64,000 bases of DNA from contig DATFUL010000002.1 in the NCBI GenBank assembly GCA_035260845.1, positions 7,033 to 71,032 of the forward strand. Reading direction: 5' to 3'. The notes below the pieces were generated by a model. The model saw only the letters and a list, made by a program, of their open reading frames with translations, was not told the DNA's origin and did no database searches. A program made the position numbers and the translations under genes. The stretch comes from Patescibacteria group bacterium. Lineage in GTDB: Bacteria; Patescibacteriota; Microgenomatia; UBA8517. This document shows, one piece after another, positions 5,183-32,984 of the stretch (its first letter is position 1; each line of letters starts with the position of its first letter).

Positions 5183-6655
5183 ATGCCTGACGTGTTTAAA
5201 AAATTTCTGTTTTCATTTTTGGCTTTTTTAGTTGTTTTTACTTCTATTACTCCGAACTTTTTATCTGTTAAGGCTGCTAGTAATTCAGCAACGGATTCAG
5301 CTACCTCTACTGCAACTTGGTATAGCCCTGGTCTTTTTGAATTTTACAGTAAAGTATTTGACACAAGTAATAACGATATTTTTGGTGAAAGGTACACTTA
5401 TGCCCAAGTGGTTTGGATTATAGAATCACTTCCCCTTGCAATTTTAGGAATTAGCGCCAGCACTTTTCATGACATACTTCAACAGGTCCAATCAAACCCG
5501 AATGGTACAAGCGTTCTTTTAGACCAAGGTAATAGCCTTGCAAAAATCAATGATCCGTTTACTACAATAATTAGCCAATTTTATTCATCTCCACCTGCTT
5601 CTGGTAGATATTGGCTATCACAAAAAATAAATAACTTTAGTTTGGTTAAAAAAGCTTATGCAGCACCAGCCAACAGCTTTGGCTATTCATCCCTTTTAAT
5701 ATTTGAACCTCTTTGGAGTGCTTCACGCAATATTGCTTACACGTTAATAGTTTTAATTTTATTGGCAATTGCTTTCGCTGTAATGTTTAGGTTAAAAATT
5801 AGTCCCCAGGTGATTGTTACTGTCCAAAGTGCACTTCCAAAAATTGCAACTACGCTTATTTTAGTTACTTTCTCTTATGCGATTGTAGGATTTTTAATTG
5901 ATTTAATGTATTTAATTTTTGGAGCAATAGTCTACGGGATTGGGAACCAATCAGGTGTGTTGGCATCGGGTGTAAGTGCTCCAGATTTATTGAATAATTT
6001 TCTTAACGGAAACTTATTTACAAAAATATTTACGACAGCCGGTACCGGCGGAACTGTTGGAATTGTAGGAGTTGTTGTTGGGCTGATTGCTTTGGTTTTT
6101 ACACCAATAGGGCCGGCTATTATTCCTCTTGTTATAGGTATACTAATTGCTGGAATAATATTTTTTATAAAAACCTTTATTATGCTTGCTCAAACCTACC
6201 TGTCCCTTATTATGAACTTGGTGTTTGGGCCAATAATAATTTTGGCCGAAGCTATTCCATTTATTAAAGCATCGGCTGTGGACTGGATGAGATCGGTTAT
6301 TGCAGATATTTTAGTATTTCTTGCAGTAGGATTACTGTTCTTGGCCGAATCATTGATCAATGGAGCTTTAAGTACGACTGCAAGCACTCCACCCTGGAGC
6401 CCACCCTATTTGGGATTCAATGCCAATATTTTTAAGATAATGATTTGGGTTGGTGTTTGGTCAATCCTACCTAACATCAGATCTATTGTTTACAAAATGA
6501 TGGAGCGGTCAGCTGCAGAGATTCAGTTGCCAAGAGAATTTAGTAATCTGGGTGAAACCTTCCAACGTGGCCTTGGTGAATACACTGGAAATACACAGTT
6601 TAGAGATTCATTTAATAGATGGTTGTCAGGATTAAGAGGTCGTACAGGAACCTAA
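5183..6655 (+). CDS. polytopic membrane protein, VirB6/TrbL-like candidate
   Basis: 490 aa. Signal-like N-terminus (FLFSFLAFLVVFTSITPNFLSVKAAS) followed by at least 6 predicted TM helices (IAYTLIVLILLAIAFAVMF, IATTLILVTFSYAIVGFLIDLMYLIFGAIVYGI, VGIVGVVVGLIALVF, IIPLVIGILIAGIIFFI...). The call rests on position in the T4SS-like locus and topology only. Confidence 0.4.
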   Translation: MPDVFKKFLFSFLAFLVVFTSITPNFLSVKAASNSATDSATSTATWYSPGLFEFYSKVFDTSNNDIFGERYTYAQVVWIIESLPLAILGISASTFHDILQQVQSNPNGTSVLLDQGNSLAKINDPFTTIISQFYSSPPASGRYWLSQKINNFSLVKKAYAAPANSFGYSSLLIFEPLWSASRNIAYTLIVLILLAIAFAVMFRLKISPQVIVTVQSALPKIATTLILVTFSYAIVGFLIDLMYLIFGAIVYGIGNQSGVLASGVSAPDLLNNFLNGNLFTKIFTTAGTGGTVGIVGVVVGLIALVFTPIGPAIIPLVIGILIAGIIFFIKTFIMLAQTYLSLIMNLVFGPIIILAEAIPFIKASAVDWMRSVIADILVFLAVGLLFLAESLINGALSTTASTPPWSPPYLGFNANIFKIMIWVGVWSILPNIRSIVYKMMERSAAEIQLPREFSNLGETFQRGLGEYTGNTQFRDSFNRWLSGLRGRTGT

Positions 6656-6692
6656 ATATTATTTGATATATTCTCTAGTTGAAGATTAAAGT

Positions 6693-9059: not shown

Positions 9060-9305
9060 ACAAAAATTGTAGCACAAAATAGACATGGAGAGTATTGAGT
9101 GGGTTGTGCATAAAAACTTGACTATGGGCCGAAAAAGTCCTACACTCGCGAGCAAGATGGGAAAAGAAAATCCAAAAGGCCTCTTTCGCAAACTCCTTGC
9201 TGCTTCCAACTCTGAAAAAGCGAAGAGTGAGGCTCTAGCTTTAGACGAATTAAAAAAAGAGATCTCGAAGATAAACGCCTCATATCAGAGTTTGACAATC
9301 GAATA

Positions 9306-9815
9306 GTGCCAGATTTGAAAAGAGCAAAAATGGAATTTTTACAACGGGGGCAAGTGCCGGCAGTTTTAGAGCTTTTCAACGATGTTGTTTTAGCTATTGA
9401 ACAAAAAGAGGGAGGAAGAAAACTGGAAAGAAGTGCTAAATTTTCTATTGAATTCTTGGGAGATATTGATAAAAACGATAATTTGTATGCAAACACGGTA
9501 AAATCCAGTTTCGTTCGTTTTTTACATGGCGAATCCGTAAATCAAATAGATGAACTTATAAAAAAGTTTACTGTAGAAATTCACGGTGATAGAACCAATG
9601 ATTCTTATGTTGAGTTTGGAATCTCAGTTTTTCCCGATAATACTTTTGGTTATTCATTTGGTGGTGCATATAATTATAGCGATAGAGCAACTAAAAAAAC
9701 TTTAGACAAAACAAATCTTGAGGTTTTTGCAGAAGATTTGGTAAGTGTTGTTACGAATAGAAAATATATGTATATAATATCACCAGGTCCTTATTTGGAC
9801 TTGAGTGGGCCGTAG
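9306..9815 (+). CDS. hypothetical protein
   Basis: 169-aa ORF with GTG start (alternative ATG at 9330). No recognisable motifs. A 73-aa ORF at 9085..9306 immediately upstream may be co-transcribed or spurious. Confidence 0.4.
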   Translation: MPDLKRAKMEFLQRGQVPAVLELFNDVVLAIEQKEGGRKLERSAKFSIEFLGDIDKNDNLYANTVKSSFVRFLHGESVNQIDELIKKFTVEIHGDRTNDSYVEFGISVFPDNTFGYSFGGAYNYSDRATKKTLDKTNLEVFAEDLVSVVTNRKYMYIISPGPYLDLSGP

Positions 9816-9910
9816 CCTATAAAAAATATTCACTTGTGAAAACACCTCCATATTGCACAGATCCCTTCACGCAGTAAGCTGACATTAGAGTAGTAATACT
9901 TTATCTGTCC

Positions 9911-10954
9911 ATGGAACAACACGCCATACCGCAAAACGTATCTTCGTACCAATTTAAGTTGGTTGGGGACATGACTCTTAAGCAATTTTTTCAACTCGCT
10001 GGTGGAATTTTGGTTGCAATTATTATTTACTCTCTACCACTTTTAGGAATTATTAAGTGGCCTTTTGCAATTCTTTCTGTTCTACTTGGTATTGGCCTTG
10101 CTTTCTTGCCACTTGAAGAACGGCCTTTAGAAAAATGGATATTTGCATTTTTTAGAGCTATTTATGCACCAACTATTTTTTCCTGGCAAAAAGCCGCAAC
10201 TCCTCCCAAATTTTTTCAGGACGAAAGCCCAACTAGTAGTACTCCACAGCAAGATTTGGCACTTAAAAGTTATTTGGGCACAACCGCTCAAGTATCGGGA
10301 GCGCTAGGAAACTTGGAAAAAGCTGAAAATGGATTTTTAGCAAAACTTACCGCACTCTTTTCTGGAATTGTTAATCCTACTCCCGCTACTCAAATTACCC
10401 CTGCCGCTACTCTTGTTCCGGAAAAATCAAAGGAGATGCAAATTCCGGAAACCCAGCCCATAAGAATTCAAGCTAATGCAACACATTTGGTGGTTGAAGA
10501 AAAACCAACTATTCAAACGGTTCAAAGTGAGCTTTCAACAAGCCAGGTTGCACCAATTATTGCAGGGAATGAGATGATTTCTACAAAACAAGCAATGTTT
10601 TCAATTGATGCGGCCCCTCCAAGCCCGCCCAGTCAACCCAATGTTGTAGTTGGCCAAATAGTTGATCAGGATAGGAAAATCGTAGAAGGCGCAATTATGG
10701 AAATTAGAGACTCAATGGGACGCCCAATAAGGGCCTTAAGAAGTAATCGAGCCGGACATTTTATTACGGTTACACAGCTAGATAATGGCCATTACGAAAT
10801 AATTACCGAGAAAGATGGTTATGAATTCGCTGCAGTTAGTTTTGACGCCAACGGCAACTTAATTCCGCCAATTTTGGTTCAAGGAAAACGAATTGCACCA
10901 ATAATTGAACCGGTACCTACCGGAATTGTTAAACCTGCATATTCTATTAACTAA
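9911..10954 (+). CDS. PrgI/VirB3-like membrane protein fused to a C-terminal CarboxypepD_reg-like beta-sandwich domain
   Basis: N-terminus MEQHAIPQNVSSYQFKLVGDMTLKQFFQLAGGILVAIIIYSLPLLGIIKWPFAILSVLLGIGLAFLPLEERPLEKWIFAFFRAI has the PrgI-family pattern: a short tail, the F-K-vG-lTlrQf segment and two TM helices. C-terminus VVGQIVDQDRKIVEGAIMEIRDSMGRPIRALRSNRAGHFITVTQLDNGHYEIITEKDGYEF resembles a carboxypeptidase-regulatory-like domain. It sits directly upstream of VirB4. Confidence 0.5.
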   Translation: MEQHAIPQNVSSYQFKLVGDMTLKQFFQLAGGILVAIIIYSLPLLGIIKWPFAILSVLLGIGLAFLPLEERPLEKWIFAFFRAIYAPTIFSWQKAATPPKFFQDESPTSSTPQQDLALKSYLGTTAQVSGALGNLEKAENGFLAKLTALFSGIVNPTPATQITPAATLVPEKSKEMQIPETQPIRIQANATHLVVEEKPTIQTVQSELSTSQVAPIIAGNEMISTKQAMFSIDAAPPSPPSQPNVVVGQIVDQDRKIVEGAIMEIRDSMGRPIRALRSNRAGHFITVTQLDNGHYEIITEKDGYEFAAVSFDANGNLIPPILVQGKRIAPIIEPVPTGIVKPAYSIN

Positions 10955-10956
10955 AC

Positions 10957-11661
10957 ATGAAGAATTCCTTAACATCTTTAAAAATCCCCAAAATTCCATA
11001 CCTGTCGGTTCCGGATGCACCAATCACTTCAACTACTCAAAGTCATTTACCCATAGCTGACGTCACAAACGACATTGTTATCTATAAAGACGGTGGGGCG
11101 GCGCTTGTTATGGAGTCGACTTCTTTAAACTTTGGACTCTTAAGCGAAAAGGAACAGGCTGCTGTTATTGCCGCCTATGCTGCAATGATTAATTCTCTTT
11201 CTTTTTCTATACAAATTATGGTTCGCACCCAAAGGAAAGATATAAGTAACTATATAACCTACATTGACGAAGAAGCTAAAAAATTAACTCACCCACTACT
11301 ACAAAAGCTTATGGGTGAATACAGGGCCTTTATAATGGACTCGGTTAAAAAGAAAAATGTTCTTGGAAAAAGATTTTATGTGGTTCTTTACCTATCGCCT
11401 CTTGAGCTTGGGGTTGGCAAATCAATTGCGGCAGTCACCAAACGCGGAATCACTCTCCCCTTTACCAAGTCTTACGTAATCAAAAAAGCCAAAATCACTC
11501 TTTATCCAAGACGCGATCATTTAATGCGCCAGGCTGGCCGACTTGGAATTAAATTTAGACAACTTACAACTCGTGAGTTAACTGATTTGTTTTATTCAAT
11601 CTATAACCCCGAGCATCCAGCGGTTAAAAAAGAGCCAGAAGTGATTCTTGAACACAAATGA
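10957..11661 (+). CDS. VirB4/TrbE/PrgJ-family ATPase, N-terminal domain fragment (split gene, part 1)
   Basis: 234 aa. IADVTNDIVIYKDGGAALVMESTSLNFGLLSEKEQAAVIAAYAAMINSLSFSIQIMVRT matches the N-terminal CagE/TrbE/VirB4 domain. The stop overlaps the next ORF start as ATGA. Confidence 0.6.
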   Translation: MKNSLTSLKIPKIPYLSVPDAPITSTTQSHLPIADVTNDIVIYKDGGAALVMESTSLNFGLLSEKEQAAVIAAYAAMINSLSFSIQIMVRTQRKDISNYITYIDEEAKKLTHPLLQKLMGEYRAFIMDSVKKKNVLGKRFYVVLYLSPLELGVGKSIAAVTKRGITLPFTKSYVIKKAKITLYPRRDHLMRQAGRLGIKFRQLTTRELTDLFYSIYNPEHPAVKKEPEVILEHK

Positions 11662-13463
11662 AACCAGACCAACCAACTAACCAACCGACAGTTCAACAAC
11701 AAGGCAAACCTAAAATCGGAAGTCCAAATATCGCTGTTTCCCAAGGATTAAACGTACTGGATGTTGTTGCCCCGCAATCCATCGAGGAAGATTTTGACTA
11801 TTTTAAAATAAACGACGTTTATTTTAGAACAATTTTTATTGGCGGCTATCCAAGATTTGTGGCCCCGGGTTGGCTTGAACCAGTTGTTAATTTTGATTCC
11901 TCCTTAGACATTTCTTTTTACGTTTATCCGGTTGACGGTAAAACCGTGCTTGATGACCTGAGACGCAAAATTGCAGAAATGGAGGCCGAGCTTTCGACCG
12001 ACATTGAGCGCGGCAGAATTGTTGACCCCTCAACTCAAGCAAAACTGGAAGACGCCAGAAATTTGCAAGAACAACTTGTTAAGGGAATCGAAAGATTTTA
12101 TGAATTTAGTTTCTACATTACAATCCCAGCAAATTCAGTTGAAGAACTAAACCATGTAACCAAGCAGATTGAGTCACAACTTGGTTCACTTTTAATTGTT
12201 AGTAAGCATGCGCTACTCGACCAAGAATCCGGGTTTTTGTCCACTGCCCCATTTGGAATAGACAGGCTAAACATTACAAGAAACATGGATACAACCTCTG
12301 TTGCCACAACTTTTCCATTAACTTCAACTGAACTATCTAGTGACCGCGGGGTTCTTTACGGAATAAATTCACAAAATGAATCTTTTATTATTTTTGACCG
12401 TTTTTCTTTGGAAAACGCAAATATGACTATTTTTGCTACAAGCGGTGCCGGAAAATCTTACTTTGTTAAACTCGAAGCCGTTCGTTCTTTAATGACTGGA
12501 ACAGAAGTAATAATAATTGACCCGGAAAGTGAATATAAACCCTTAGCACAGGCTGTTGGGGGTGAATATATTTCTTTTTCCTTTAATTCCCCTGCCAAAA
12601 TTAATCCGTTTGATTTAGCTCAAATTAGAGAAGAGGGTGAAAACCAGCTTGGACAAAAGATTCTTTCACTCCATTCTCTAATGAAGGTTATTATGGGAAC
12701 AATCTCCCCCACCCAAGAGGCCTTACTTGACCGTGCACTTGTCATGACTTACAGGAACAAAGGCATAACCATGGATCCAGACACCCAGGGCAAAGAACCG
12801 CCCCTAATGGAAGACTTGTATAAAACTTTAATTGGCATGGAAGTACCAGATGCTTTGGACCTTGCAGCAAGAATTGAAAAATTTGTCAGAGGTTCGTTTG
12901 TTGGTATTTTTGATAAACAAACAAACATAAACATCACAAATCCGTTTACTGTTTTTTCGGTTAAAGATTTGCAGGATGTTCTAAGGCCCATCGCCATGTT
13001 TATAATCCTAGACTACATTTGGACGAGAGTTAAAAAAGACCTCAAGAAACGCATCTTAATCGCCGAGGAGGCCTGGCAAATGATGAAGTACCCAGATACA
13101 GCCCAATTTTTATGGAGTGTCGTTAAAAGGGCTAGGAAATATTATTTAGGTTTAACAACGATTACTCAGGATGTGGAAGACTTTTTGGGCCAAGATATTG
13201 GTAAAGCAATTGTCACCAACAGTGCCATGCAGGTGCTTCTTAAACAGTCCCCAGCTGCAATCGATAAAATCGGGGAAATATTTTACTTAAGCCAGGGGGA
13301 AAAACAGTTACTCTTAGCAGCAAACGTTGGTGAGGGAATATTTTTTGCAGGCCCGCACCATGCTCCAATTAGGGTTGTTGCATCTGAGGATGAAAACAAA
13401 CTAATTACAACCAAACCACAAGAAATTGCAAAGATAAGTCCAAACGCATATGAAGCAAAATAA
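11658..13463 (+). CDS. VirB4/TrbE/PrgJ-family T4SS ATPase, C-terminal ATPase domain (split gene, part 2)
   Basis: 601 aa. Walker A MTIFATSGAGKSYFVKLE. Walker B/DEAW-type RILIAEEAWQMMKY. Conserved GLTTITQ and sensor region typical of the VirB4 C-terminal domain. Confidence 0.85.
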   Translation: MKPDQPTNQPTVQQQGKPKIGSPNIAVSQGLNVLDVVAPQSIEEDFDYFKINDVYFRTIFIGGYPRFVAPGWLEPVVNFDSSLDISFYVYPVDGKTVLDDLRRKIAEMEAELSTDIERGRIVDPSTQAKLEDARNLQEQLVKGIERFYEFSFYITIPANSVEELNHVTKQIESQLGSLLIVSKHALLDQESGFLSTAPFGIDRLNITRNMDTTSVATTFPLTSTELSSDRGVLYGINSQNESFIIFDRFSLENANMTIFATSGAGKSYFVKLEAVRSLMTGTEVIIIDPESEYKPLAQAVGGEYISFSFNSPAKINPFDLAQIREEGENQLGQKILSLHSLMKVIMGTISPTQEALLDRALVMTYRNKGITMDPDTQGKEPPLMEDLYKTLIGMEVPDALDLAARIEKFVRGSFVGIFDKQTNINITNPFTVFSVKDLQDVLRPIAMFIILDYIWTRVKKDLKKRILIAEEAWQMMKYPDTAQFLWSVVKRARKYYLGLTTITQDVEDFLGQDIGKAIVTNSAMQVLLKQSPAAIDKIGEIFYLSQGEKQLLLAANVGEGIFFAGPHHAPIRVVASEDENKLITTKPQEIAKISPNAYEAK

Positions 13464-15975
13464 AAATCCGCCTTCGGACTTTAATTTTCAAAAAACCACA
13501 GAGTTAATTGAGGCTCTACAGATAATGCTGCCCAAAAAGCTTGGCCTAAGTGATGTTTTGGCAAAAAAAACTCTTAAAACAGATTATTTTTCTTGGAAAA
13601 ACCCCGAACAACTAGAAAAATATACTCTCGAAGTAACGGGTGAGGACAATATTAAATATGCCGAAAGACGTCTAGTTCAGTGGCAAGAAGAGCTTGCTGA
13701 AACTTCCGCAAAAATCGTTGAGCCGCCAAAGACTGTTGTCGAAGCCAGTCTTCCCAATAAAGGTTTAAGAGAACAGCAACAAGCAGATGTAGAAAGGGCT
13801 GAGGCGCAAACTATCGAAAGAGAAGAAAGAATTGGAGTCAAACTCCAAGCCGAACTTGATGCCAAAGTAAAAGCCGCTGCTAACGCAAAAATAATAAGGG
13901 AGTTTAAAGAATCAGTTAAAAATAAAAATGTTTACGCAAAAGTTAAAGAGGCTAACGAGTCCCTACTTAGCCAAGATGACGAAGTTAAAATTAACAATTT
14001 AAAGTCAGAGGCAAAAATAGATCCAGACGGCTTAACAGCACAGGTTGCAGCCGATATAAAAAGCCGCCTTGAACAAGTTGGTGTTCAGGGAGATATAGAT
14101 GGTGCATCGGAATTAACTGCTCAAAATATGGTAGCCGTTTTGGGAGGAAATTCCCCACTAATCGAAGCCGTTATTGCTAAACAGTCAGTTGATAAAGGAA
14201 TGCTTGGGGCTGCGGGAGAGTTTGGGGCCGCACAAAATATAGTTAAAGATTATTCACAGTATCAAGTTGAGAGTTTTATGTTTAGTAAAAACATTGCTGA
14301 AGTCGCTTTCGGTAAAGATGGTAAGGGAATTACGGATCGAATTTTTTCTACTCCTGAATCTATACAAGTTGCAAATATTCCCACCGAAGGCTTTACCCCG
14401 TATGCAGTATCAAAACTAATCAACTCTGAGCCTACAGTCATAGTAAACACTTCTGATTTAGGAACCGGATCTAGTCAGCCAATTTTTATTAATCGTGTAA
14501 GTAGACCGCATTTTGAAGCAAGTTCTCGCCAAACAGACAGATTCGATTTTAGATCCCAAATGTCTTCTTTTAAACCTAGTCCGAGCACCAAGTCCGTAAA
14601 CATAAATGCTCAGAAAATTGGCACACCAAAGATTTCTATTTCAACGGCTCCACTAAGACAGGCTGCTTCTGGAATAACAAAGGTTTTTGCTGATCTTTTT
14701 TCTAAAGGCAAAATTGCAATTAAAGGCTTGGAAAATAGCCAAGGAGGGTTAATTGTTGGTGGAATTGCCGTGGCGGTTGCAGGAATAACTTCGGGTAGTG
14801 CACTTTTAACATCGGTTGGCTTTGGTAGTACTGCTGCCGGTTTTGTTGTAAATCCCGGTAGAGCTCTTAGTGGATCCGCTTTTGGCAATGTTGTTGCACC
14901 AATCTTGGGATTCTTTCATTCGGTTATGAATTTTGTACTTGAAGGGATTGTTCTACCTATCATCCTAGCTGTTCTTTGTGTTCCACTTTTAATAGCACTT
15001 TTTCTTTTTATAATAAATTCGGGTGCCTTAATTGTTCCACCCGGTCAGTCAACTTTAAGTAGCACAAATCCATACATCGAGGTTCGAAAGGTTCCTAACC
15101 CCGGAGGCCAACTTGGGTCGCCGCAAGCAATAACCTATACAATTACAGTCACCGCAAAAAAGGATCTTCTTACTAGGATAAGTTTTAAAACAGATTGCAA
15201 AGCAATCAAAAAAAGTGGCCCTAGTATTGATTGTAGTTCGCTTGAAAAAATTGCTACATCAACAGCCTCGATTGCACCCGGATCACCTTTTTCTTTCAAC
15301 TTTACATCAAACTACGATGCTAAATATCAAGATTCTCTTGTTTCAGACACTATCACAGTTTCTGCAGAGTCTAACGAGGGTGGAAAACTTTCGGAAACAG
15401 GCTCTGCATCGGTTTGTTTTGGAAAATGCCCTCTAAATTGTTTTGATTTTTCCAGCCCGACCTGGAGCTCTGTGCCTAATTTACAATCAAACCTAACCCA
15501 AGCCGCCGCCCAACTTGCATCTCAATACCCAAACTTTGCAGCCAAGGTTTGTGGAGGCGGAACGGTTAAACTTTGTTACACTACAAGTAATCCGACTCCT
15601 GTGGGTAAAGCTGGTATCTGCAATCAAGCAACTTACGCCAAAGATGTGGAACAAAAAGATTGTAATATCAACTTCAATCAGTGTGGAATTAAGTCGACCA
15701 GTGATGCACTGTTTATACTTACGCACGAAACAACTCACCATATTCAAATAATCAATAAAGGGTCTGAGAGGTTGTTTGAACAAAACGTACCACAATCAGA
15801 ATGGCCAATCTGCACATACGGCCTCACTGGAAGTAATCCTTATGAAAGTCAAGCTGAGGGAGATGCTTTGTTTGTGAATCAACACCCATCGTGGGCTTCA
15901 TCTTGTGTTACAAATTACGCAGTACAATACCCTAAACATTACAATTTTGCAAAGAATGTAATGTTTGGACCATAA
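13450..15975 (+). CDS. large T4SS-associated membrane protein (PrgK/TcpG position) with C-terminal HExxH metallopeptidase-like motif
   Basis: 841 aa. N-terminal roughly 440 aa is charged and coiled-coil-like (QQQADVERAEAQTIEREERIGVKLQAELDAKVKAAANAKI). A TM cluster follows (GGIAVAVAGITSG...VLPIILAVLCVPLLIALFLFIINS). C-terminal Cys-rich domain contains LTHETTHHIQ (HExxH) at about nt 15724-15738. Function is inferred from synteny with Gram-positive T4SS hydrolase genes. Confidence 0.45.
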   Translation: MKQNKNPPSDFNFQKTTELIEALQIMLPKKLGLSDVLAKKTLKTDYFSWKNPEQLEKYTLEVTGEDNIKYAERRLVQWQEELAETSAKIVEPPKTVVEASLPNKGLREQQQADVERAEAQTIEREERIGVKLQAELDAKVKAAANAKIIREFKESVKNKNVYAKVKEANESLLSQDDEVKINNLKSEAKIDPDGLTAQVAADIKSRLEQVGVQGDIDGASELTAQNMVAVLGGNSPLIEAVIAKQSVDKGMLGAAGEFGAAQNIVKDYSQYQVESFMFSKNIAEVAFGKDGKGITDRIFSTPESIQVANIPTEGFTPYAVSKLINSEPTVIVNTSDLGTGSSQPIFINRVSRPHFEASSRQTDRFDFRSQMSSFKPSPSTKSVNINAQKIGTPKISISTAPLRQAASGITKVFADLFSKGKIAIKGLENSQGGLIVGGIAVAVAGITSGSALLTSVGFGSTAAGFVVNPGRALSGSAFGNVVAPILGFFHSVMNFVLEGIVLPIILAVLCVPLLIALFLFIINSGALIVPPGQSTLSSTNPYIEVRKVPNPGGQLGSPQAITYTITVTAKKDLLTRISFKTDCKAIKKSGPSIDCSSLEKIATSTASIAPGSPFSFNFTSNYDAKYQDSLVSDTITVSAESNEGGKLSETGSASVCFGKCPLNCFDFSSPTWSSVPNLQSNLTQAAAQLASQYPNFAAKVCGGGTVKLCYTTSNPTPVGKAGICNQATYAKDVEQKDCNINFNQCGIKSTSDALFILTHETTHHIQIINKGSERLFEQNVPQSEWPICTYGLTGSNPYESQAEGDALFVNQHPSWASSCVTNYAVQYPKHYNFAKNVMFGP

Positions 15976-15984
15976 TATAGTTAA

Positions 15985-16569
15985 ATGAAAAAATTAACAG
16001 GTTTCATAAAAAAATATTGGATATTAATCATGTTGGTCTTAGCAGGAATTCTTTATGTAATTAACTTTTTTTTAAAAGGTCCAATCTCACCAGTAACACC
16101 AACTCCTACACCAATTAATAAAATCGCAGCATTTGGTTCGCTTATTCCTGGTGTAAGTAATGAAAACGATGTTTTGAATGTTTTAGGCCGTCCGATTGAC
16201 ACAAAAACTGAAAATGGACTAGTAACTTCTCAATATAAATCTACCAATCAGTACAGATTTAACAAAGTAATTTTCACAAATGGTACAACTAAATTAATAA
16301 AGGAGATTGTCAATTCAAACGATAACAAAGACGCGAGTTCAATAACTAGTATTTACGGGGCGCCCCAATACACACTTTATGAAAAATTATCGAACAGTGT
16401 TTTTAATTTATACGTATATCCCCAAAATGGGATAGCTTATCTTGGTGCAACAGATGGGACACTAAAAGAGATTTGGTATTTCGAACCCACTACGATAGAC
16501 AACTTCATCAAAGATTGGGGGCAGGATTTTGCAACAACTCCGGTTGGTGAAAAAGACAGTGCTTATTAA
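15985..16569 (+). CDS. small bitopic membrane protein (PrgL/VirB8-like position)
   Basis: 194 aa with one N-terminal TM (YWILIMLVLAGILYVINFFL) then a soluble domain. It is the last gene of the VirB4 operon. Assignment is by size, topology and synteny only. Confidence 0.35.
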   Translation: MKKLTGFIKKYWILIMLVLAGILYVINFFLKGPISPVTPTPTPINKIAAFGSLIPGVSNENDVLNVLGRPIDTKTENGLVTSQYKSTNQYRFNKVIFTNGTTKLIKEIVNSNDNKDASSITSIYGAPQYTLYEKLSNSVFNLYVYPQNGIAYLGATDGTLKEIWYFEPTTIDNFIKDWGQDFATTPVGEKDSAY

Positions 16570-17678
16570 GATTGAACTCTAACTGGCATTATCAAGTGAA
16601 GATAATTTGAATCCGAAGAATCTGTAAACACCCCTGCTTTATCGGTTGTAGTAAATTCCATTTTTACTTCCTCACCACTTACAGAGTGCAAAAATTCCTC
16701 AAGAAATCGGTAATTAAAAGCAATTTCAAAATCTTTCACCTCTCCGTCAATTTTAGCCTCGACCTGAGTCTCCTGACTACCCGAGTTGCTGCTTTCCGCA
16801 AAAACTTTCACGGAATTCTTATCTAATTTGAGTTTTACAACATTTGCCGCTTCCCTAGCGAATATTGAGGCTAGTTTTACCGCTCTTAAGAACTCCTCTT
16901 TGTCTAATCTAACTGTGATTGTTGAACTTTTGGGTATAATCTTTTCAAAATCTGGGTACTCTCCTTCCAGAAGTCTCGAAGAAAGAACAATGTCACCTAG
17001 TCCAAAAATAACTTGTTTTTCTTTCTCTTGTATCTCAAATTGGAATTCTGAAACGTCTTCCAAAGATCTTCCAAGCTCCCCAAGTACCCCTTTAGGAATT
17101 ACAATTTTCTGCTCCACCAGGTCTTTTTTATTTTTTAAGGCTATTTTCTTTCTTGATAGCCTAAAGCCGTCGGTTGCAACAATAGTTAATCCTTCTTTAT
17201 CCAAAACAAAAAGGACTCCTGTTAAAACCGGCCTTGTTTCATCTGCACTTGCAGCAAAAACTACTTGAGAAAGTGATTCCAATATTTCTTTTTTAGGCAA
17301 ACTTAAAGGTTTTACAACTGATTCCGGTATTTTTGGGAAGTCGGTTGCATTCATTCCTAATACTTTTGATGTAAAACCAGATGTTTCAATTTTAAGTTGT
17401 TCTTTTTCTGATTCCAAAGTTACATTTTCTTTTGGAAGATTACTCACAAGTTCAGATATTACTTTTGAGGGAATGCTTATCTCCCCTTCACTTTCTATTT
17501 TTGCGCCTATTTGTATTAGAACTGATATTTCAAGATTTGTTGAACTTATGTTGAGTTTTGTTTTTGTAGCTTTTAGTAGAATGTTTCCGAGTATTGGTAA
17601 TTGAGATCTTGTACTGGCAAACCTTGAAGCTTGAGTTATCGCTTTTGTTAAATTTTCCTGTAAAACCGTTAATTTCAT
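16566..17678 (-). CDS. dnaN: DNA polymerase III beta sliding clamp
   Basis: 370 aa. MKLTVLQENLTKAITQASRFASTRSQLPILGNILLKA... has three-domain length and pattern. Position is immediately downstream of dnaA. Confidence 0.9.
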   Translation of the reverse strand: MKLTVLQENLTKAITQASRFASTRSQLPILGNILLKATKTKLNISSTNLEISVLIQIGAKIESEGEISIPSKVISELVSNLPKENVTLESEKEQLKIETSGFTSKVLGMNATDFPKIPESVVKPLSLPKKEILESLSQVVFAASADETRPVLTGVLFVLDKEGLTIVATDGFRLSRKKIALKNKKDLVEQKIVIPKGVLGELGRSLEDVSEFQFEIQEKEKQVIFGLGDIVLSSRLLEGEYPDFEKIIPKSSTITVRLDKEEFLRAVKLASIFAREAANVVKLKLDKNSVKVFAESSNSGSQETQVEAKIDGEVKDFEIAFNYRFLEEFLHSVSGEEVKMEFTTTDKAGVFTDSSDSNYLHLIMPVRVQS

Positions 17679-17868: not shown

Positions 17869-19248
17869 TCAAAGTGTGTTTTTTATCTTCAACATATCCT
17901 CACGAATATGCACATCTGTTGTGGCTAGTTGTGTAATTTTATTCACAGCATGCATGACAGTTGAATGGTCGCGGTTTCCAACTAGCCTACCAACTTCCTC
18001 AAAGGCAATTCCAAGCTGGGTCCTAAGGAGATACATCAGCATTTGTCGGGGGCGGGCAACTTGGCGTGCTCTGGTGTCACTTAATATCAACCTTTTTCCT
18101 ATTTGATAGTATTTACAAACAGCCTCGATAGTTTGTTCTGGTGTACTTCTTGATGCTTTTCCATTTATTTCCTCCTTATGGCTTAGAGCTCCTTCGACTA
18201 AGTCTTTTGTAATAGGTAGTTTTTTAAGATGAACTTCGTTCATTATTTTTATTAAAACCCCCTCAATGTTCCTTGCACCTTCGGTATTGGCAGCAATCAT
18301 CTGTATTTGATCCATCTCCAGTGGAATTTTTCTTTCTTGAGACTTGATCTGTACAATTGCACATTTGAGCTCAAAGTCAGGTGGGGAAACGTCTACTATT
18401 AAACCCGCCTCAAAACGGCTTCTTAAACGGTCTTCAAGCTTAAATATTTCAGAAGGAGGCTTGTCAGCGGTCATTATTACCTGTCCCCCAGCCGAGGTCA
18501 CGGCATTGAAAGTATGAAAGAATTCTTCTTGTGCAGTTTCCTTACCTGCAATAAACTGAATGTCGTCGACCATTAAGAGGTTTAGTTTCCTGTATTTTTT
18601 CCTGACTTCGGGCGTGGTTTTGTTGCGGATCCCGTCAATTATGTCGTTCGTAAAGTCCTCGGCTGTACATGATAAAACCAAACTGTGTGGATCCCGAAGC
18701 AATGTAGAATGCCCAACAGCCTGCATAAGATGGGTTTTGCCAACTCCGACCCCACCCCAGATAAATAATGGGTTGTATGCCGTTCCCAAGCTTTCAGAAA
18801 CAGCCAATGCTGCTGCGTGGGCCATTTGATTACTTCCCGAAACTGCAAAATTCTCAAAAGTAAAACTTGGTTTAATCCGTGACGTTCTAAGAACCTCGAT
18901 AAACTCTCTATCATCCTTTTTATTTTCAAATAACGGCGCTTCGGTTTCCTTACTTGGCTCAACTTTATCTAAGTTCTCTTTTACTATAAAAGTGACATCA
19001 CACGTTTTACCCACCACCTTATTCAAAGAGTCTTGGATTAAACCAAAATATCTTGATTCTATTGTGTTTTTGGCAAAAGAGGTCGGACAGCCAATTTCAA
19101 CAACTACCCTGTCCCCCACCTCATTTAAGCTTGCAATATGCGTTTTTGAAAACCAGGTAGAAAATATAGCCGGAGACACAGAAACTTTAATTATTTCTAA
19201 AGTGTCTTTCCAGGAAGTTTTTGGATCTATATTCATTGTTAATAACAA
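17869..19248 (-). CDS. dnaA: chromosomal replication initiator protein DnaA
   Basis: 459 aa. Walker A GGVGVGKTHLMQAVGH. Walker B LLMVDDIQFIAGKETAQEEFFHTFNA. C-terminal DNA-binding domain ...LSDTRARQVARPRQMLMYLLRTQLGIAFEEVGRLVGNRDHSTVMHA. Confidence 0.95.
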   Translation of the reverse strand: MLLTMNIDPKTSWKDTLEIIKVSVSPAIFSTWFSKTHIASLNEVGDRVVVEIGCPTSFAKNTIESRYFGLIQDSLNKVVGKTCDVTFIVKENLDKVEPSKETEAPLFENKKDDREFIEVLRTSRIKPSFTFENFAVSGSNQMAHAAALAVSESLGTAYNPLFIWGGVGVGKTHLMQAVGHSTLLRDPHSLVLSCTAEDFTNDIIDGIRNKTTPEVRKKYRKLNLLMVDDIQFIAGKETAQEEFFHTFNAVTSAGGQVIMTADKPPSEIFKLEDRLRSRFEAGLIVDVSPPDFELKCAIVQIKSQERKIPLEMDQIQMIAANTEGARNIEGVLIKIMNEVHLKKLPITKDLVEGALSHKEEINGKASRSTPEQTIEAVCKYYQIGKRLILSDTRARQVARPRQMLMYLLRTQLGIAFEEVGRLVGNRDHSTVMHAVNKITQLATTDVHIREDMLKIKNTL

Positions 19249-19548: not shown

Positions 19549-19893
19549 ATGTTAGCAAAAAAATACAGACTCACAGGTTCGGGGGACTTTGCAAAAGTTC
19601 AGTCATTGGGCACGACCTTCCAATCAACTAATTTTGGTATAGCTGTTTTAGATAGGAAGGATGCAAATCCACCCAGGTTTGCTTTTATTATTTCAACCAA
19701 GATTGCCAAAGACGCGGTTGATAGAAACACAATTAGACGCCATATGAGCGAAACTGTAAGACTTATGACCTCTGAAGTAAAAAATGGCCTTGATGTGGTG
19801 TTTTTAGCTAAAACGAGCATAATGCGCATTCCGGCTGACGCGATTGTCCGTGAAGTAAGAACAGCAGTCCGGACTTGTGGAATAACTAAATAA
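19549..19893 (+). CDS. rnpA: ribonuclease P protein component
   Basis: 114 aa. Basic protein downstream of rpmH with an RnpA-like core FGIAVLDRKDANPPRFAFIISTKIAKDAVDRNTIRRHM. Confidence 0.85.
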   Translation: MLAKKYRLTGSGDFAKVQSLGTTFQSTNFGIAVLDRKDANPPRFAFIISTKIAKDAVDRNTIRRHMSETVRLMTSEVKNGLDVVFLAKTSIMRIPADAIVREVRTAVRTCGITK

Positions 19894-20121
19894 ATGAAGG
19901 CTTTGTTAATTTTTTTAATAAAATCTTATAAGAAAGTTGTTTCACCAGTTTTTGAAGTTTTGTTTGGAAAAGCTTGCAGGTTTACACCAACCTGTTCCGA
20001 GTATACAATTGAGGCTCTTGAAAAATTTGGAGCAAGTAGGGGAGTCGCGCTTGGAGCTAAAAGATTTTTAAGATGCCACCCTTGGGGAGGCTTAGGATTT
20101 GATCCGGTACCAAATAAATGA
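19894..20121 (+). CDS. yidD: membrane protein insertion efficiency factor YidD
   Basis: 75 aa. [66 protein letters not shown] has the conserved C-F-PTCS-Y...R-CHP-GG-G-DPVP signature. Confidence 0.95.
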
Positions 20122-20954
20122 ATATTTTTTCAACCATATTAACTCAACCATTAGCCAATGGCTTGATTCTTTTTTACAACTTCTTTGGCCACAACTTGGG
20201 GGTAGCCACAATTTTATTTAGCTCATTCTTGTTTTTGATTACACGTCCTTTGAGTAAACCCCAGATGGACTCAATGAAGAAAATTAAATCAGTCCAACCA
20301 TTGGTCGATAAACTTAAAAAGAAGTATGGGACAGATAAAATGGCATTCCAAAAAGCTCAAGCCGAGCTTTACAAGCAAAAGGGTATTAACCCGGGGGCCG
20401 GATGCTTGTTTCAGATTTTACAACTGGTTATATTAATTACTTTTTACCAAGTTTTTGCCACCTCTTTATCGAATAATGCCCAATCAATTGCCAAATTGAA
20501 TGCGCTTTTATATACACCTCTTAAAATTGCTTCTGAATCTACTCTTAATACAAGTTTTCTTTATTTAAACATTAGTAAGCCCGACCTCTTTAATATTCCA
20601 AGCCTTCCATTTGGTATTCCTGGAGTTTTCTTGATTTTGGCTACAATCTCACAATTTTTGTCAATTAAAATCACAGCTCCTTTTGTTGAAGCAGAAAAGA
20701 AAGTTGTCAAGTCAACAAAGAGTGAAACTGACGACATGCAGCTTGCCATGAGTTCATCTATGATGTACACAGTTCCTTTAATGACTTTGTATTTTGGTTA
20801 TAAATTTCCATCGGGCCTGGCCCTTTATTGGTTAGTTTTTTCGATTGGAACAGTTTGGCAACAGGTTGCCAATAATGGTTGGGGCAGTCTGACCCCTTTT
20901 ATTCGCCGCATTGGTCTGCTACAATCAAGCCTCAAGAATGGAAAAAAGAGTTAA
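20118..20954 (+). CDS. yidC: membrane protein insertase YidC/Oxa1 family (short form)
   Basis: 278 aa with 5 TM segments. [67 protein letters not shown]. Conserved yidD-yidC order. Confidence 0.9.
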
Positions 20955-29512: not shown

Positions 29513-29767
29513 ATGAACAAAGAACAAAAAGAAAATAGTCAGGTGGAAGCGTCCACTCGGTTGGCATACAAAATTGAAAAGGCTATGATAGTCATAGGTA
29601 TGGCAGGTGGTGCTTCTTTAATGACAGGAGTTATACTACAAACTTTTTTGGAAATCCCAACTACTGAAGTACCTACCTACCTGGTAACAATGATACCAGC
29701 GGCAATTGTTGGTGCCGGAATAGGGGTTTATTTAAACCGTTTCGATAATCAAGATTTAGGAAAGTGA
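29513..29767 (+). CDS. small membrane protein, hypothetical
   Basis: 84 aa with two predicted TM helices. No motif. Confidence 0.35.
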   Translation: MNKEQKENSQVEASTRLAYKIEKAMIVIGMAGGASLMTGVILQTFLEIPTTEVPTYLVTMIPAAIVGAGIGVYLNRFDNQDLGK

Positions 29768-30772
29768 TAATCTGGGATTGCGGTCAATTTTATCTGGATC
29801 TACAAATTCTTCTCTCTCAGCTTTAAAGTAAGCAGCGATGCCAATCATTGCTGCGTTGTCGCCGTATAATCTATTCGAATAGGGAAAATGCAAATTGATA
29901 TTAAATGCTTTACCAAGTTTTCTTAATCTTTTTCTCATTTCGACATTTATTCCAACGCCGCCTCCAACTAATAAGTCTTTAGGCGTCTTTGGATAATCAT
30001 TAGATAAAATAAAATGGAAAACTCGAATAATGTGTGTAAATGCGGCATCCTGGAAGCTAGCTGCTAAATCGTATATTTTCTCTTTAGTTAAAGGTTTTTC
30101 TGATTCTACCAGTCTCATCATTGAAGTTTTTAAGCCAGAGTACGAAAACATTCTGCGGTTTTCTTGGCCTGCTATAGGAACTGGAAGAGTGTATTTTTTA
30201 GGATTACCAAGTTTTGCCATTTTTTCGAAAATTGCTCCACCAGGGTACCCTAAACCCAACATTCTTGCAGCCTTATCAAGCGCCTCACCCAATGCATCGT
30301 CATGAGTTTCTGCAAGAACTTTGTAATTACCAATTTTATCTATTTGAATAATTTGTGTATTTTTCCCAGAAATGACTAACCCAAGTGCTGGGAATTTAAT
30401 ATCAATGTTTTGATTTGCAAAAGAGGAGAGAAGGTGTCCTTCCAAATGATTAACTGCGATTAGTTTTTTGTTATATTTAATTGCCAATTCTTTGGCTTTA
30501 TTAACTCCAACCCCAAGTGCGATAGAAAGACCTGGGCCAATCGTTACCGCAATCGCATCGATATCCTTTGTTATTTCAAACTTTCCAAGAGCCTTTTTTA
30601 TGACGAAGTCGATTCGCTCCTCGTGCATTCTTTGAGCCAGAGAGGGCATCACGCCGCCAAATTTAGCATGTGCTGAAGCTTGGGACCAAATAATATTACT
30701 TAATATTTTTGTATCCTCGGTTACTGCTGCAGCAGTTTCGTCACAGCTTGTATCAATCGAGAGAATTTTCAT
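29756..30772 (-). CDS. tsaD: tRNA N6-adenosine threonylcarbamoyltransferase TsaD (Kae1/Gcp family)
   Basis: 338 aa. MKILSIDTSCDETAAAV...NHLEGHLLSSF (HxEGH metal site)...GGGVGIN. Confidence 0.9.
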   Translation of the reverse strand: MKILSIDTSCDETAAAVTEDTKILSNIIWSQASAHAKFGGVMPSLAQRMHEERIDFVIKKALGKFEITKDIDAIAVTIGPGLSIALGVGVNKAKELAIKYNKKLIAVNHLEGHLLSSFANQNIDIKFPALGLVISGKNTQIIQIDKIGNYKVLAETHDDALGEALDKAARMLGLGYPGGAIFEKMAKLGNPKKYTLPVPIAGQENRRMFSYSGLKTSMMRLVESEKPLTKEKIYDLAASFQDAAFTHIIRVFHFILSNDYPKTPKDLLVGGGVGINVEMRKRLRKLGKAFNINLHFPYSNRLYGDNAAMIGIAAYFKAEREEFVDPDKIDRNPRLSLS

Positions 30773-30788
30773 CGTTATCTATTTAACC

Positions 30789-31700
30789 TTAATACTTTCT
30801 TGAAGAATGGAATATTCCCATTTTAACTAAATGATATTTAACTATTTCAGATGAATCCATTCCATTTGTCTTACGCTCGGCCTTTAAGTGTCTCAAGATA
30901 TCATCAATTTTAAGTCTGTTATCTTCAAACGCAACACTGTTTGGGGTTTTTGAAGTGGACCATAAACCTTCAAAAGTTTTTGGTTTTATATTTGCTTCAA
31001 CCGAAACGATTCCGTCCGCACCCATTTCAAGTGAGTCTGCAGCATCTGCTGTATTACCCTGAAAAACTTTGAAAGAAGCATTTTTTAATTTTAGAACACT
31101 CTCAAACTGTTGAATGTCTTTACTTGATGACTTTATTCCAACAACTCTTCCTTTGGACTCGTCTTTAGCAAATTGAACCAGATCAAATGGAATTTCCTTC
31201 CCTTCGGTCATGCTTGGATTACTATAAAGAAGAACTGGTAAGCTAGTTGCATCTAGGACTGTCTCAAGAGCTTTGTAAGGATCACGACTTAACATGGGTG
31301 CAAATATAATTCCATCTGCTCCCACTGAATTTGCTGTTTTTGCAAATTCGGTAATTTCAGACATCTCCTTTTTAAGAACTCCTGCGAGTACAGGCACTCT
31401 GTTGATAGAATGCTTATCCCTACTGTTGATAACAGTAGTTAACAAAACGTTATAATTTTCTAAATCAAGAGATAAACCTTCACCAGCATTTCCTGCCGGA
31501 AATAAAGCGCCTGAGTGGTTGACGACACTAGCCACCAGGTTATCCAAGTCTTTTACTTGAACTAAGGGTTTCTTACTTTTCTCTGAAAAAGGAGTTACAA
31601 GCGGAATTACAACAGCCTTTAATTTACTTGGATTAAGTACTTCTTTTTGATCGACATGTCTCAATTTGAGATCAACCATGGTGTGGCGATTATAACACAC
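30789..31700 (-). CDS. dihydrodipicolinate synthase / N-acetylneuraminate lyase-family (DapA-like) aldolase
   Basis: 303 aa. VIPLVTPFSE...VASVVNHSGALFPAGNAGEGLSLDLENYNVLL matches the DHDPS-family N-terminal pattern (vvP-vTPF...G--gl---GttGE---Ls--E). Confidence 0.5.
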   Translation of the reverse strand: MCYNRHTMVDLKLRHVDQKEVLNPSKLKAVVIPLVTPFSEKSKKPLVQVKDLDNLVASVVNHSGALFPAGNAGEGLSLDLENYNVLLTTVINSRDKHSINRVPVLAGVLKKEMSEITEFAKTANSVGADGIIFAPMLSRDPYKALETVLDATSLPVLLYSNPSMTEGKEIPFDLVQFAKDESKGRVVGIKSSSKDIQQFESVLKLKNASFKVFQGNTADAADSLEMGADGIVSVEANIKPKTFEGLWSTSKTPNSVAFEDNRLKIDDILRHLKAERKTNGMDSSEIVKYHLVKMGIFHSSRKY

Positions 31701-32742
31701 CCCAAGAGATCAGTCTTTCGTTTTCAAATTTACCTGACTTAATATTTACCCAAATAACAATTGCTTCTTCGTCATACTTACGAATTTCGTCAGTTACTTT
31801 TTCTGCCCATTCAATTGAGACTACGGATTTGTTTTTAATTAAATCCGGAAAACCCAAAGCTGTTAATTCATCTGAATTTTCTAGCCTCCAAGTATCGAAA
31901 TGGAATAATTTTTTACTGCCTTCTCCATATTCGTTTTCAAGAGCAAAAGTTGGTGAGGTAACTAGTTCAGTTATTCCCATGGCGCGGGCCAGCCCTTTTG
32001 TAAATTGAGTTTTACCTGCTCCCATTTGGCCTTCCAAGGCGAAAACAATTGCCCTTTTGCCTTTATAATTTTCATATTTTTGCCACAATTCTTTACCAAT
32101 GTTTTGGGTATTTTCTTCTGAACGAGAAAGAACCTCATTTTTATCCTTAATTTTTATTTCACCTTGTCTTAAAACTGTTGGGTCATCAAGTGTTGTATCA
32201 ATTACTGTTGAGGGTTCGTTTTTAGGAAGTTCGCCAACATCGATAATTAAGTCAATCAACCCTTTTTGCTTTTCAGAAATATTTCTGAGGATGTCATCAA
32301 TTTTGTATGGCCGTTTTTGGTATGAAGCGTTGGCACTGGTTGCCACAATTGGACGGCCAAATTTGGTAATCAAATTAAGCATATTTTTATAATCCGGAAT
32401 CCTAACTCCCAAGGTTCCTGTTTCTGACTCGATCCCTTTAGCAACTTTTCCTTTCCCATTGGAAATAACTGTAACCGGCCCAGGCAGAAAAGTTTTATAG
32501 AGATTTCGGGCGGTGTCGTTTAACTCTACATATTCCTCGGCCATTTTTTGATCAGAACACATAATGGCATAAGGTTTTCCTAATGGTCTTTCTTTGTATT
32601 TACTTAATTTTTCAATAGCCTCGGGGTTTTGTGAGTCCACGGCAACACCGTAAACAGTTTCGCAGGGGAAGACTACTAGCCCGCCAGCCTCAAGTGTTTT
32701 TAAAATCGTGTCTAAATCATCAAAATTGTTTACAAGCTTCAT
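31690..32742 (-). CDS. fused TsaC/Sua5/YrdC (L-threonylcarbamoyladenylate synthase) - TsaE (P-loop) protein
   Basis: 350 aa. N-terminal YrdC fold: LEAGGLVVFPCETVYGVAVDSQNPEAIEKLSKYKERPLGKPYAIMC...FLPGPVTVI. C-terminal TsaE: ALEGQMGAGKTQFTKGLARAMGITELVTSPTFALENEY...FHFDTWRL. Confidence 0.8.
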   Translation of the reverse strand: MKLVNNFDDLDTILKTLEAGGLVVFPCETVYGVAVDSQNPEAIEKLSKYKERPLGKPYAIMCSDQKMAEEYVELNDTARNLYKTFLPGPVTVISNGKGKVAKGIESETGTLGVRIPDYKNMLNLITKFGRPIVATSANASYQKRPYKIDDILRNISEKQKGLIDLIIDVGELPKNEPSTVIDTTLDDPTVLRQGEIKIKDKNEVLSRSEENTQNIGKELWQKYENYKGKRAIVFALEGQMGAGKTQFTKGLARAMGITELVTSPTFALENEYGEGSKKLFHFDTWRLENSDELTALGFPDLIKNKSVVSIEWAEKVTDEIRKYDEEAIVIWVNIKSGKFENERLISWGVL

Positions 32743-32984
32743 GAGGCCATTATACCTCCTAGTTGTTGGATTATGAATAAAAGTGTTAAATTTAGTTAAT
32801 GTCTGTTTGGAACGAAGGACTACGTAAAATTGTAGATTTTCACTTGATTGACCCGAACTTTGATGGTACTCGGCAACTTTTTACTTTTTATAGAACCGGT
32901 AAGTATTCACTTGGGACTGAAAAAGATATGAATAAGGTAAGAAAAGACTCTGACAAAAAAAGTGCTATTGAAGACATAATCTTT

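Follow-up and report, generated by a model that had tools for sequence, protein, structure and literature searches.

How does threonylcarbamoyl-AMP (TC-AMP) travel from TsaC to TsaD during the synthesis of N6-threonylcarbamoyladenosine at position 37 of tRNAs (t6A37), and what does TsaE do beyond resetting TsaD? In this pathway, TsaC makes the unstable TC-AMP and TsaD, held by TsaB, moves its threonylcarbamoyl group to A37. These two open questions are touched by a locus located in a 64,000-nucleotide stretch of DNA from a Patescibacteria group bacterium (assembly GCA_035260845.1, contig DATFUL010000002.1, positions 7,033 to 71,032 of the forward strand), which is referred to as the window in this study. 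In the window, a single gene (tsaCE) encodes a TsaC domain fused to a TsaE domain and lies on the same strand as tsaD, from which it is separated by one gene encoding an aldolase-like protein (Table 1).

Both halves of the fusion protein were recognized by profile searches. PF01300 (Sua5/YciO/YrdC) matched residues 16-194 (E 2e-47) and PF02367 (TsaE) matched residues 207-328 (E 5.3e-32), while the NCBIfam models for TC-AMP synthase (TIGR00057, residues 9-202) and for TsaE (TIGR00150) scored 167.5 bits and 101 bits against cut-offs of 123.2 and 60.1, respectively. The only other Pfam match was a weak one to KAP_NTPase; the SUA5 domain was not matched, which places the protein outside the TsaC2/Sua5 subtype. 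TsaC can be told from its paralogue YciO by a KRSN catalytic tetrad (PMC4615747). This tetrad is present (K50, R52, S136 and N138), is invariant in 22 close homologues and is largely retained across 100 diverse fusions (K50 in 99%, S136 and N138 in 91% each and R52 in 70% of them). Considering this tetrad and the equivalog score above its cut-off, the possibility that the domain is a YciO paralogue was rejected. On the TsaE side, the protein carries a Walker A motif (G238-x-x-G241-x-G243-K244-T245), S263-P-T265, H281-x-D283-x-W285-R286 and E311-W312, and residues G241, G243, K244, T245, S263, H281, D283, E311 and W312 are invariant in 100/100 fusions.

An AlphaFold2 model of the fusion, computed from a 100-sequence alignment, reached a mean predicted local distance difference test score (pLDDT) of 95.1 and a predicted template modeling score (pTM) of 0.72; with the 22 close homologues only, which make a shallow alignment, these values were 74 and 0.51. 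The N-terminal half of the model superposes on E. coli YrdC/TsaC (1hru, template modeling (TM) score of 0.83) and also on Sua5/TsaC2, and its C-terminal half superposes on TsaE structures (TM scores of 0.81 for 1htw, 0.80 for 5np9 and 0.71-0.75 for chain E of the T. maritima TsaBDE complex, 6s84_E). The linker is the lowest-confidence stretch of the model (pLDDT of 78 for the residue block 191-200), and the segment from G194 to T212 that contains it is 15-20 residues long in 85 of the 100 fusions. Judging from its sequence, its tetrad and the YrdC alpha/beta twisted open-sheet fold of the model, the N-terminal domain belongs to the TsaC family and is predicted to synthesize TC-AMP; from its profile score and motifs, the C-terminal domain belongs to the TsaE family and is predicted to bind at the TsaB-TsaD interface with activation of its ATPase. 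A first-pass annotation of this DNA had proposed a single 350-aa open reading frame (ORF) with a complete TsaC domain fused to a TsaE domain; the Pfam matches, the NCBIfam scores above cut-offs and the AlphaFold2 folds agree with it, and both domains are complete. That annotation had singled out two checks, and the proposal passed both: the C-terminal domain matches the TsaE profiles TIGR00150 and PF02367, and no stop or frameshift was found near residue ~200.

Could the fusion nevertheless be an assembly or frameshift artefact joining two ORFs? We rejected this explanation, whose likelihood we take to be practically nil. Reading through the sequence showed an unbroken frame across the domain junction, and the identical protein (HKB88142.1) is encoded on five contigs from NCBI, JGI and ENA assemblies, the largest of which has 608,867 bp. 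Both Pfam domains were also found in 120/120 best database matches (69-100% identity), a set drawn from many independent assemblies. We then ran HMMER exhaustively against 1.84 billion cluster representatives (50% identity) and obtained 209 proteins at E <= 1e-30; among the best 150 of these 209 representatives, 135 have a TsaC domain followed by a TsaE domain, two have the reverse order and 13 have a single domain. The TsaC-TsaE fusions among these best 150 have a median length of 361 aa and identities going down to ~32%. Since the same continuous architecture is found in so many independent assemblies, an assembly artefact can be excluded.

Species-representative genomes bearing the fusion are labeled Woesebacteria, Amesbacteria, Paceibacterota or "Patescibacteria group". 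Five GTDB representatives with the fusion and its synteny (loci L008, L009, L012, L013 and L016) carry labels such as "uncultured Gammaproteobacteria", "Pseudomonadales" or "archaeon", which are probably wrong. TsaC-like proteins with 26-35% identity were also found on IMG/VR viral contigs (L224-L232, including six giant-virus GVMAG contigs), where the TsaC domain stands alone, in agreement with the published Pandoravirus TsaN. The database entry of the exact protein from the window, HKB88142.1, is annotated just as "L-threonylcarbamoyladenylate synthase"; since databases label the fusions solely in this manner, pathway reconstructions give these genomes as apparently lacking TsaE.

The first-pass annotation had also described the fusion and tsaD, two genes downstream on the same strand, as a compact unit, and this pairing turned out to hold far beyond the window: in 17/17 loci examined, the first t6A gene that follows the fusion is tsaD, down to 33% identity and including loci with unrelated flanking contexts. 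The product of tsaD in the window scored 330.8 bits with TIGR03723 (cut-off of 296.1), matched PF00814 (E 4.4e-75) and contains the HxxxH...D metal site of TsaD (H109, H113 and D305). In 13 of the 17 loci, tsaD overlaps or nearly abuts the fusion; the gap between the two genes is comprised between -11 and +41 bp in 11 of the 15 loci where it was measured, the commonest arrangement being a 4-bp overlap. In two loci of the 33%-identical clade, tsaD overlaps the fusion by ~20 bp and the flanks are unrelated (ftsH upstream and a DsbA-like gene downstream). The four exceptions among the 17 loci each carry a different insertion located exactly at the tsaCE/tsaD junction (Table 1). This junction is a recurrent insertion site, occupied by unrelated genes in four species, and the conserved unit is tsaCE-tsaD, which is often translationally coupled.

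As a side observation on TsaD itself, residues 135-139 of the protein from the window (30356-30370) read SGKNT instead of the usual conserved SGGHT loop, the remaining TsaD motifs being intact. The same loop reads SGGNT in L004, SGGHT in L008 and SGKST in L009.

The insertion found in the window encodes a protein of the dihydrodipicolinate synthase (DHDPS)/N-acetylneuraminate lyase (NAL) superfamily, with a PF00701 match (E 1.7e-24) of 86.5 bits that exceeds the gathering score of 22.1 and with S. aureus DHDPS as its best solved relative (E 1.6e-18). It scored only 106.6 bits with the dapA equivalog TIGR00674, whose cut-off is 206.15. When aligned to S. aureus DHDPS, it keeps the Schiff-base lysine (K183, in a GIKSSS motif) and the equivalent of Tyr133 (Y152), but it has N64-A65 instead of Thr-Thr (GTT to GNA), M129-L130 instead of Tyr-Tyr (PYY to PML) and M157 in place of the arginine that binds aspartate semialdehyde. 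The catalytic and substrate-binding residues of DapA, which we take to be T44/T45, Y107, Y133, R138 and K161 (E. coli numbering), are thus substituted at four positions (T44/T45, Y107 and R138), and we rejected DapA as the identity of this protein given these substitutions and the sub-cut-off score. What stands of the "DapA-like" aldolase of the first-pass annotation is therefore its membership in the DHDPS/NAL superfamily (PF00701, K183); it is neither DapA nor a conserved part of the module, since it is species-specific.

Indeed, the DHDPS-like gene was absent from all other fusion loci examined and was found only in the species of the window, so that we also rejected it as a conserved member of the module. 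In the closest other species, the fusion is 85% identical and the gene order groES, SBP, VanW, tsaCE, tsaD, aaRS, L25 is shared, but the aldolase gene is absent and tsaCE and tsaD overlap by 4 bp. Because this relative with the same synteny lacks it, the DHDPS-like gene is a recent and species-specific insertion. The idea that it is recent foreign DNA visible by its composition was not supported, as its GC content, its GC content at third codon positions and its codon usage match those of neighboring genes. It is probably co-transcribed with tsaCE and tsaD as a passenger, because the three genes are on the same strand with gaps of 10 bp (from the tsaCE stop to the DHDPS-like gene) and 16 bp (from the DHDPS-like gene to the tsaD ATG), and because the junctions have no terminator-like site. 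This probable co-transcription and the native-like composition would also fit a gene with a function in the module, such as providing or altering a substrate or standing in for TsaB. We nevertheless judge such a role very improbable, considering that the gene is confined to one species, that its 85%-identical relative has overlapping tsaCE and tsaD genes instead, and that other species hold unrelated genes at the same site. To our knowledge, the t6A pathway requires no aldolase, and nothing ties the DHDPS-like gene to t6A synthesis.

Two reverse-order proteins (P0266 and P0263, Table 1) come from another patescibacterial lineage, where the TsaE-TsaC fusion gene lies in an ftsE-ftsX neighborhood and is followed by a gene for a minimal TsaB (mini-TsaB) rather than by tsaD. 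The P0266 gene overlaps by 4 bp a downstream gene encoding this mini-TsaB, a 103-aa PF00814 protein with the GPGSFTGLRVG motif. The two enzymes were joined independently a second time in TsaE-TsaC, which means that they were fused at least twice and in opposite orders.

The mini-TsaBs bear on a further claim of the first-pass annotation, which had noticed no tsaB near the fusion. This is true of the window, of ~7-9 kb past each of its ends and of the related loci, but it is not evidence that tsaB was lost, a mini-TsaB being easily overlooked. We searched for TsaB using E. coli TsaB in phmmer, a hidden Markov model (HMM) built from 99 metagenomic TsaBs and E. coli TsaB, and a 109-sequence mini-TsaB HMM. 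In the window and its flanks (~84 kb of a source contig of at least 609 kb), all searches matched TsaD only, and precomputed Pfam calls over the same region showed no second PF00814 protein besides TsaD. Likewise, scanning 16 related loci over 10 kb around the fusion, or as far as the contig ended, revealed neither a full nor a mini TsaB; L233 and L234 are covered by gene calls only. When the metagenome collection was scanned for DNA encoding GPGSxTGxR[IV]G, using a pattern biased by codon usage, 120 TsaB loci were obtained, and those inspected were Firmicutes-, Mollicutes- or Bacteroidota-like, with no patescibacterial-looking TsaB among them.

Mini-TsaB is a protein of ~100 aa (~140 aa in one subfamily) that corresponds to the N-terminal half of TsaB, belongs to PF00814 and keeps the motif GPGSFTGLRVG invariant. 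At least 6,572 clusters at 90% identity make up the family; NCBI names them "dimerization subunit type 1 TsaB", and they include the Woesebacteria protein KKR30477.1. The relatives of the fusion are assigned to Woesebacteria and Microgenomates, a clade where mini-TsaB is very common; scans of viral contigs found none, and our literature searches found no paper discussing patescibacterial mini-TsaB. In the five contexts inspected (Table 1), mini-tsaB is always directly after tsaE or one gene away, with a conserved ftsE-ftsX neighborhood in four of them. The lack of a nearby tsaB is thus not proof of its absence, because the ~100-aa patescibacterial TsaB is normally encoded next to tsaE at another place in the genome. 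TsaE of T. maritima makes contact with the C-terminal domain of TsaB as well (PMC6009658), and this is the domain that mini-TsaB does not have. A TsaB of ~100 aa in Patescibacteria shows the extent to which accessory subunits can shrink.

What could be gained by attaching TsaC to TsaE? We propose that the locus encodes the two-gene core of bacterial t6A37 synthesis, made of a bifunctional TsaCE and TsaD. The TsaC domain would convert threonine, bicarbonate and ATP into the labile TC-AMP, and a linker of ~10 residues would connect it to TsaE, the ATPase predicted to dock on the TsaD platform and to reset TsaD after each turnover; TsaD would then place the threonylcarbamoyl group on A37 of tRNAs that decode ANN codons. 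TsaBD has a single cavity for which TsaE and tRNA compete, and because they share this cavity of the TsaD platform, tethering TsaC to TsaE would bring TC-AMP synthesis to the entrance of the TsaD active site during the TsaE-bound, tRNA-free stage. TC-AMP would be loaded first, before ATP hydrolysis ejects TsaE together with TsaC and tRNA binds. The fusion may also set a 1:1 stoichiometry in a minimal genome. This model is close to a proposal of Missoury et al. (PMC6009658), according to which the TsaE-bound and catalytically inactive TsaD receives TC-AMP from TsaC, ATP hydrolysis then freeing TsaE and letting the tRNA in. A TsaC-TsaE fusion would be anticipated if such a hand-off is important. 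Moreover, TsaE and TsaC2 of T. maritima interact physically, and an additional, non-ATPase role of TsaE linked to TsaC2 was suggested (Luthra et al. 2018, PMC5814804). Prior evidence for a contact between TsaC and TsaE consisted only of this native-gel shift in one thermophile and of a structural hypothesis. A covalent TsaC-TsaE brings independent evolutionary support for the two acting side by side on the TsaD platform, because a large and deeply diverged clade has conserved the fusion, tsaD accompanies it every time, and the same pair was joined anew in the opposite order.

The overall explanation that we favor, and that we hold to be fairly probable though by no means secure, is that the fusion serves as a tether by which TC-AMP is synthesized at the TsaD platform on which TsaE is docked, the aldolase-like gene being a passenger. 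The most defensible mechanism is a flexible tether that would raise the local concentration and fix a 1:1 stoichiometry, which fits better than a TobZ-like tunnel. Channeling by the fusion is plausible, and we infer the step from being fused to handing off TC-AMP. Several points weigh against this explanation. Both domain orders exist, which argues against a fixed inter-domain geometry, and the inter-domain orientation is modeled with moderate confidence only, according to the pTM values given above. In T. maritima, TsaB2D2 and TsaC2 complete a single turnover without TsaE (PMC5814804), and TsaE is therefore unneeded for the TC-AMP hand-off there. When TobZ is superposed on TsaBDE, its TsaC-like module lies opposite to TsaE on TsaD (PMC6009658), making a TobZ-like tunnel unlikely for a TsaC that is tethered to TsaE by a short linker. 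Genome reduction in general also tends to produce gene fusions, and TsaB, which TsaE needs in model systems, was not found in the ~84 kb of this genome that were scanned.

The main rival to a tether is a purely neutral "Rosetta-stone" fusion, in which adjacent pathway genes would have been joined during genome streamlining, with independent domains, a freely diffusing TC-AMP and a gain limited to co-expression and stoichiometry. Reduced patescibacterial genomes with overlapping genes (such as the 4-bp overlaps) would favor such events, and the existence of both domain orders, which suggests that no particular geometry is required, the dispensability of TsaE for a single turnover in T. maritima (PMC5814804) and the moderate confidence in the inter-domain orientation are all in line with it. 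However, the fusion has persisted across a family whose members have diverged to ~32% identity, its linker has kept a narrow range of lengths, it originated at least two times and in opposite orders, and TsaE and TsaC2 interact physically even where their genes are unfused (PMC5814804). In addition, unfused Patescibacteria have tsaE beside tsaB, not beside tsaC, and the fusion therefore required a rearrangement, more than the loss of a stop codon. Altogether, we consider a neutral fusion unlikely, if still a serious contender. A different possibility, which could hold together with the tethering model and would extend it, is a two-polypeptide system in the fusion-bearing lineage that has lost even the minimal TsaB, where the TsaE domain would dock on a Qri7-like TsaD homodimer and deliver TsaC there. 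With free or N-terminal TsaE, mini-tsaB is within one gene of tsaE in 5/5 contexts, whereas the TsaC-TsaE loci have tsaD instead in 17/17 cases and no full or mini TsaB in the 16 loci scanned; no tie to a fusion-bearing contig emerged for any of the 229 TsaB clusters listed, an observation of little weight since these represent ~3% of a family with at least 6,572. Mitochondrial Qri7 and two Mycoplasma species do work without TsaB, but the bacteria known to be without TsaB are also without TsaE (PMC4615747), and T. maritima TsaE binds only the TsaB-TsaD pair and neither protein alone (PMC5814804). Since, in addition, ~84 kb were scanned of this genome, whose source contig has at least 609 kb, and mini-TsaB is very common in the clade of the fusion's relatives, a loss of TsaB appears distinctly improbable. 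If true, it would be the first bacterial system with TsaE but without TsaB, and no regulated t6A machine known would be more compact. The fusion also offers a naturally stabilized complex and hence a possible handle to trap the TC-AMP loading state by cryo-electron microscopy and to compare channeling with diffusion.

Features of the locus and of the related loci are listed in Table 1. The three-gene cluster is flanked upstream by a VanW-domain gene, and downstream of tsaD by a small ORF on the opposite strand and then by a gene for a class I aminoacyl-tRNA synthetase, probably valS. The DHDPS-like ORF would encode 303 aa if started from an upstream GTG (31700). An AGGAGG Shine-Dalgarno sequence lies ~12 nt before the tsaCE ATG, 3' of the promoter-like hexamers. 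Promoter and terminator scans of the region gave no signal above shuffled controls, nor did the number of promoter-like sites exceed that of the shuffles; no minus-strand terminator-like site was found at either gene junction, the single minus-strand site of the cluster being inside tsaD. The small opposite-strand ORF (84 aa, 29513-29767, +), which shares 12 bp with the 3' end of tsaD, is annotated as a gene in public assemblies; it has no Pfam match, and its sequence has a hydrophobic, membrane-like appearance.

Table 1. Coordinates of the features discussed in this study (positions in the window or, where a locus handle is given, in that locus).
Feature	Position	Strand	Description
tsaC-tsaE fusion gene (tsaCE)	32742..31690	-	350 aa + stop, single uninterrupted ORF
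TsaC domain (YrdC-type, type 1)	32137..32742	-	residues ~1-202, with the KRSN tetrad
Inter-domain linker EIKIKDKNEVLS	32125..32160	-	residues ~195-206, gap between Pfam envelopes
TsaE (YjeE) P-loop ATPase domain	31693..32124	-	residues 207-350; PF02367, TIGR00150
DHDPS/NAL-superfamily class I aldolase-like gene (junction insertion of the window)	31679..30789	-	296 aa from the ATG used by gene callers
tsaD	30772..29756	-	338 aa; PF00814, TIGR03723; metal site H109-x3-H113 + D305
Promoter-like hexamers TTCATA-17-TATAAT	32749..32777	-	weak evidence
Junction insertion, L004	11036-11623		195-aa ORF, weak 2'-5' RNA-ligase-superfamily match
Junction insertion, L008	11070-11999	-	309-aa unknown ORF, strand opposite to the fusion
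Junction insertion, L009	11013-11237	-	74-aa ORF
Reverse-order TsaE-TsaC fusion (P0266), L208	10001-11017		338-340 aa
Reverse-order TsaE-TsaC fusion (P0263), L209	1442-2458		338-340 aa
mini-tsaB, L208	11014-11325
mini-tsaB, L210	10001-10303
mini-tsaB, L214	6001-6306
mini-tsaB, L222	6001-6423
mini-tsaB, L223	6001-6303

Elsewhere in the window, a type IV secretion system (T4SS)/conjugation-like cluster (~1-16600) lies directly beside the genes of the chromosomal replication origin (dnaN, 16566-17678; dnaA, 17869-19248; rnpA, 19549-19893; yidC, 20118-20954). It contains several T4SS_pilin genes together with a PrgI-like gene, a TraC-like gene and a gene for a VirB4/TraG-like ATPase (example ORFs: 999-1337, 9911-10954, 10957-11661 and 11658-13463), as well as a gene for a 195-aa member of the 23S rRNA intervening-sequence protein family (PF05635; 1771-2358, -). 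A comparable T4SS-like cluster with a serine recombinase adjoins tsaB in locus L223.

How does the fusion compare with known systems? Its two domains share their families, motifs, folds and their partner TsaD with the stand-alone TsaC (YrdC) and TsaE (YjeE) of E. coli, B. subtilis and T. maritima. In these model bacteria, however, TsaC and TsaE are separate proteins, whereas here they form one polypeptide; the contact of TsaC with the transfer complex was considered to be only transient there, and tsaC rarely clusters with other t6A genes (PMC3571937, PMC5814804). The fusion resembles TsaC2/Sua5 in having a YrdC-type domain, a short linker and a C-terminal domain of ~140 aa, and its best whole-chain fold matches are Sua5 and TsaC2. 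Yet, its C-terminal domain is a TsaE P-loop ATPase, and only the N-terminal half superposes (whole-chain root-mean-square deviation of ~17 Å). The same two activities are physically associated in the T. maritima TsaE-TsaC2 complex, but that complex is non-covalent, was seen on native gels only and involves TsaC2 (PMC5814804), while the fusion is covalent, is built on a type 1 TsaC and has been maintained throughout a large clade.

As in TobZ, HypF and Pandoravirus TsaN, an adenylate-forming YrdC module would be brought close to a transferase, and TobZ and HypF are known to channel their intermediate. These three proteins fuse the synthase to the transferase, whereas here the synthase is fused to a regulatory ATPase: instead of YrdC-like and Kae1-like domains in one polypeptide with a tunnel, the partner domain is TsaE, and tsaD is a separate adjacent gene. 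Fusions reported within or beside the t6A machinery, which were already used as evidence for protein-protein interactions (PMC4615747, PMC3571937), comprise the archaeal Kae1-Bud32, yeaZ-rimI-ygjD (Coriobacterium) and yjeE-alr (Clavibacter) (PMC4615747, PMC3571937), in addition to hydrolase-yeaZ, TsaC/HemK (M. genitalium), TobZ, HypF (YrdC-Kae1) and Pandoravirus TsaN (PMC4615747, PMC3571937, PMC10484737, PMC9654439). None of these joins TsaC to TsaE, and neither a TsaC-TsaE fusion nor the t6A genes of Patescibacteria came up in full-text literature searches. TsaC-TsaE is thus a new domain architecture within a well-known system, rather than a new kind of system.

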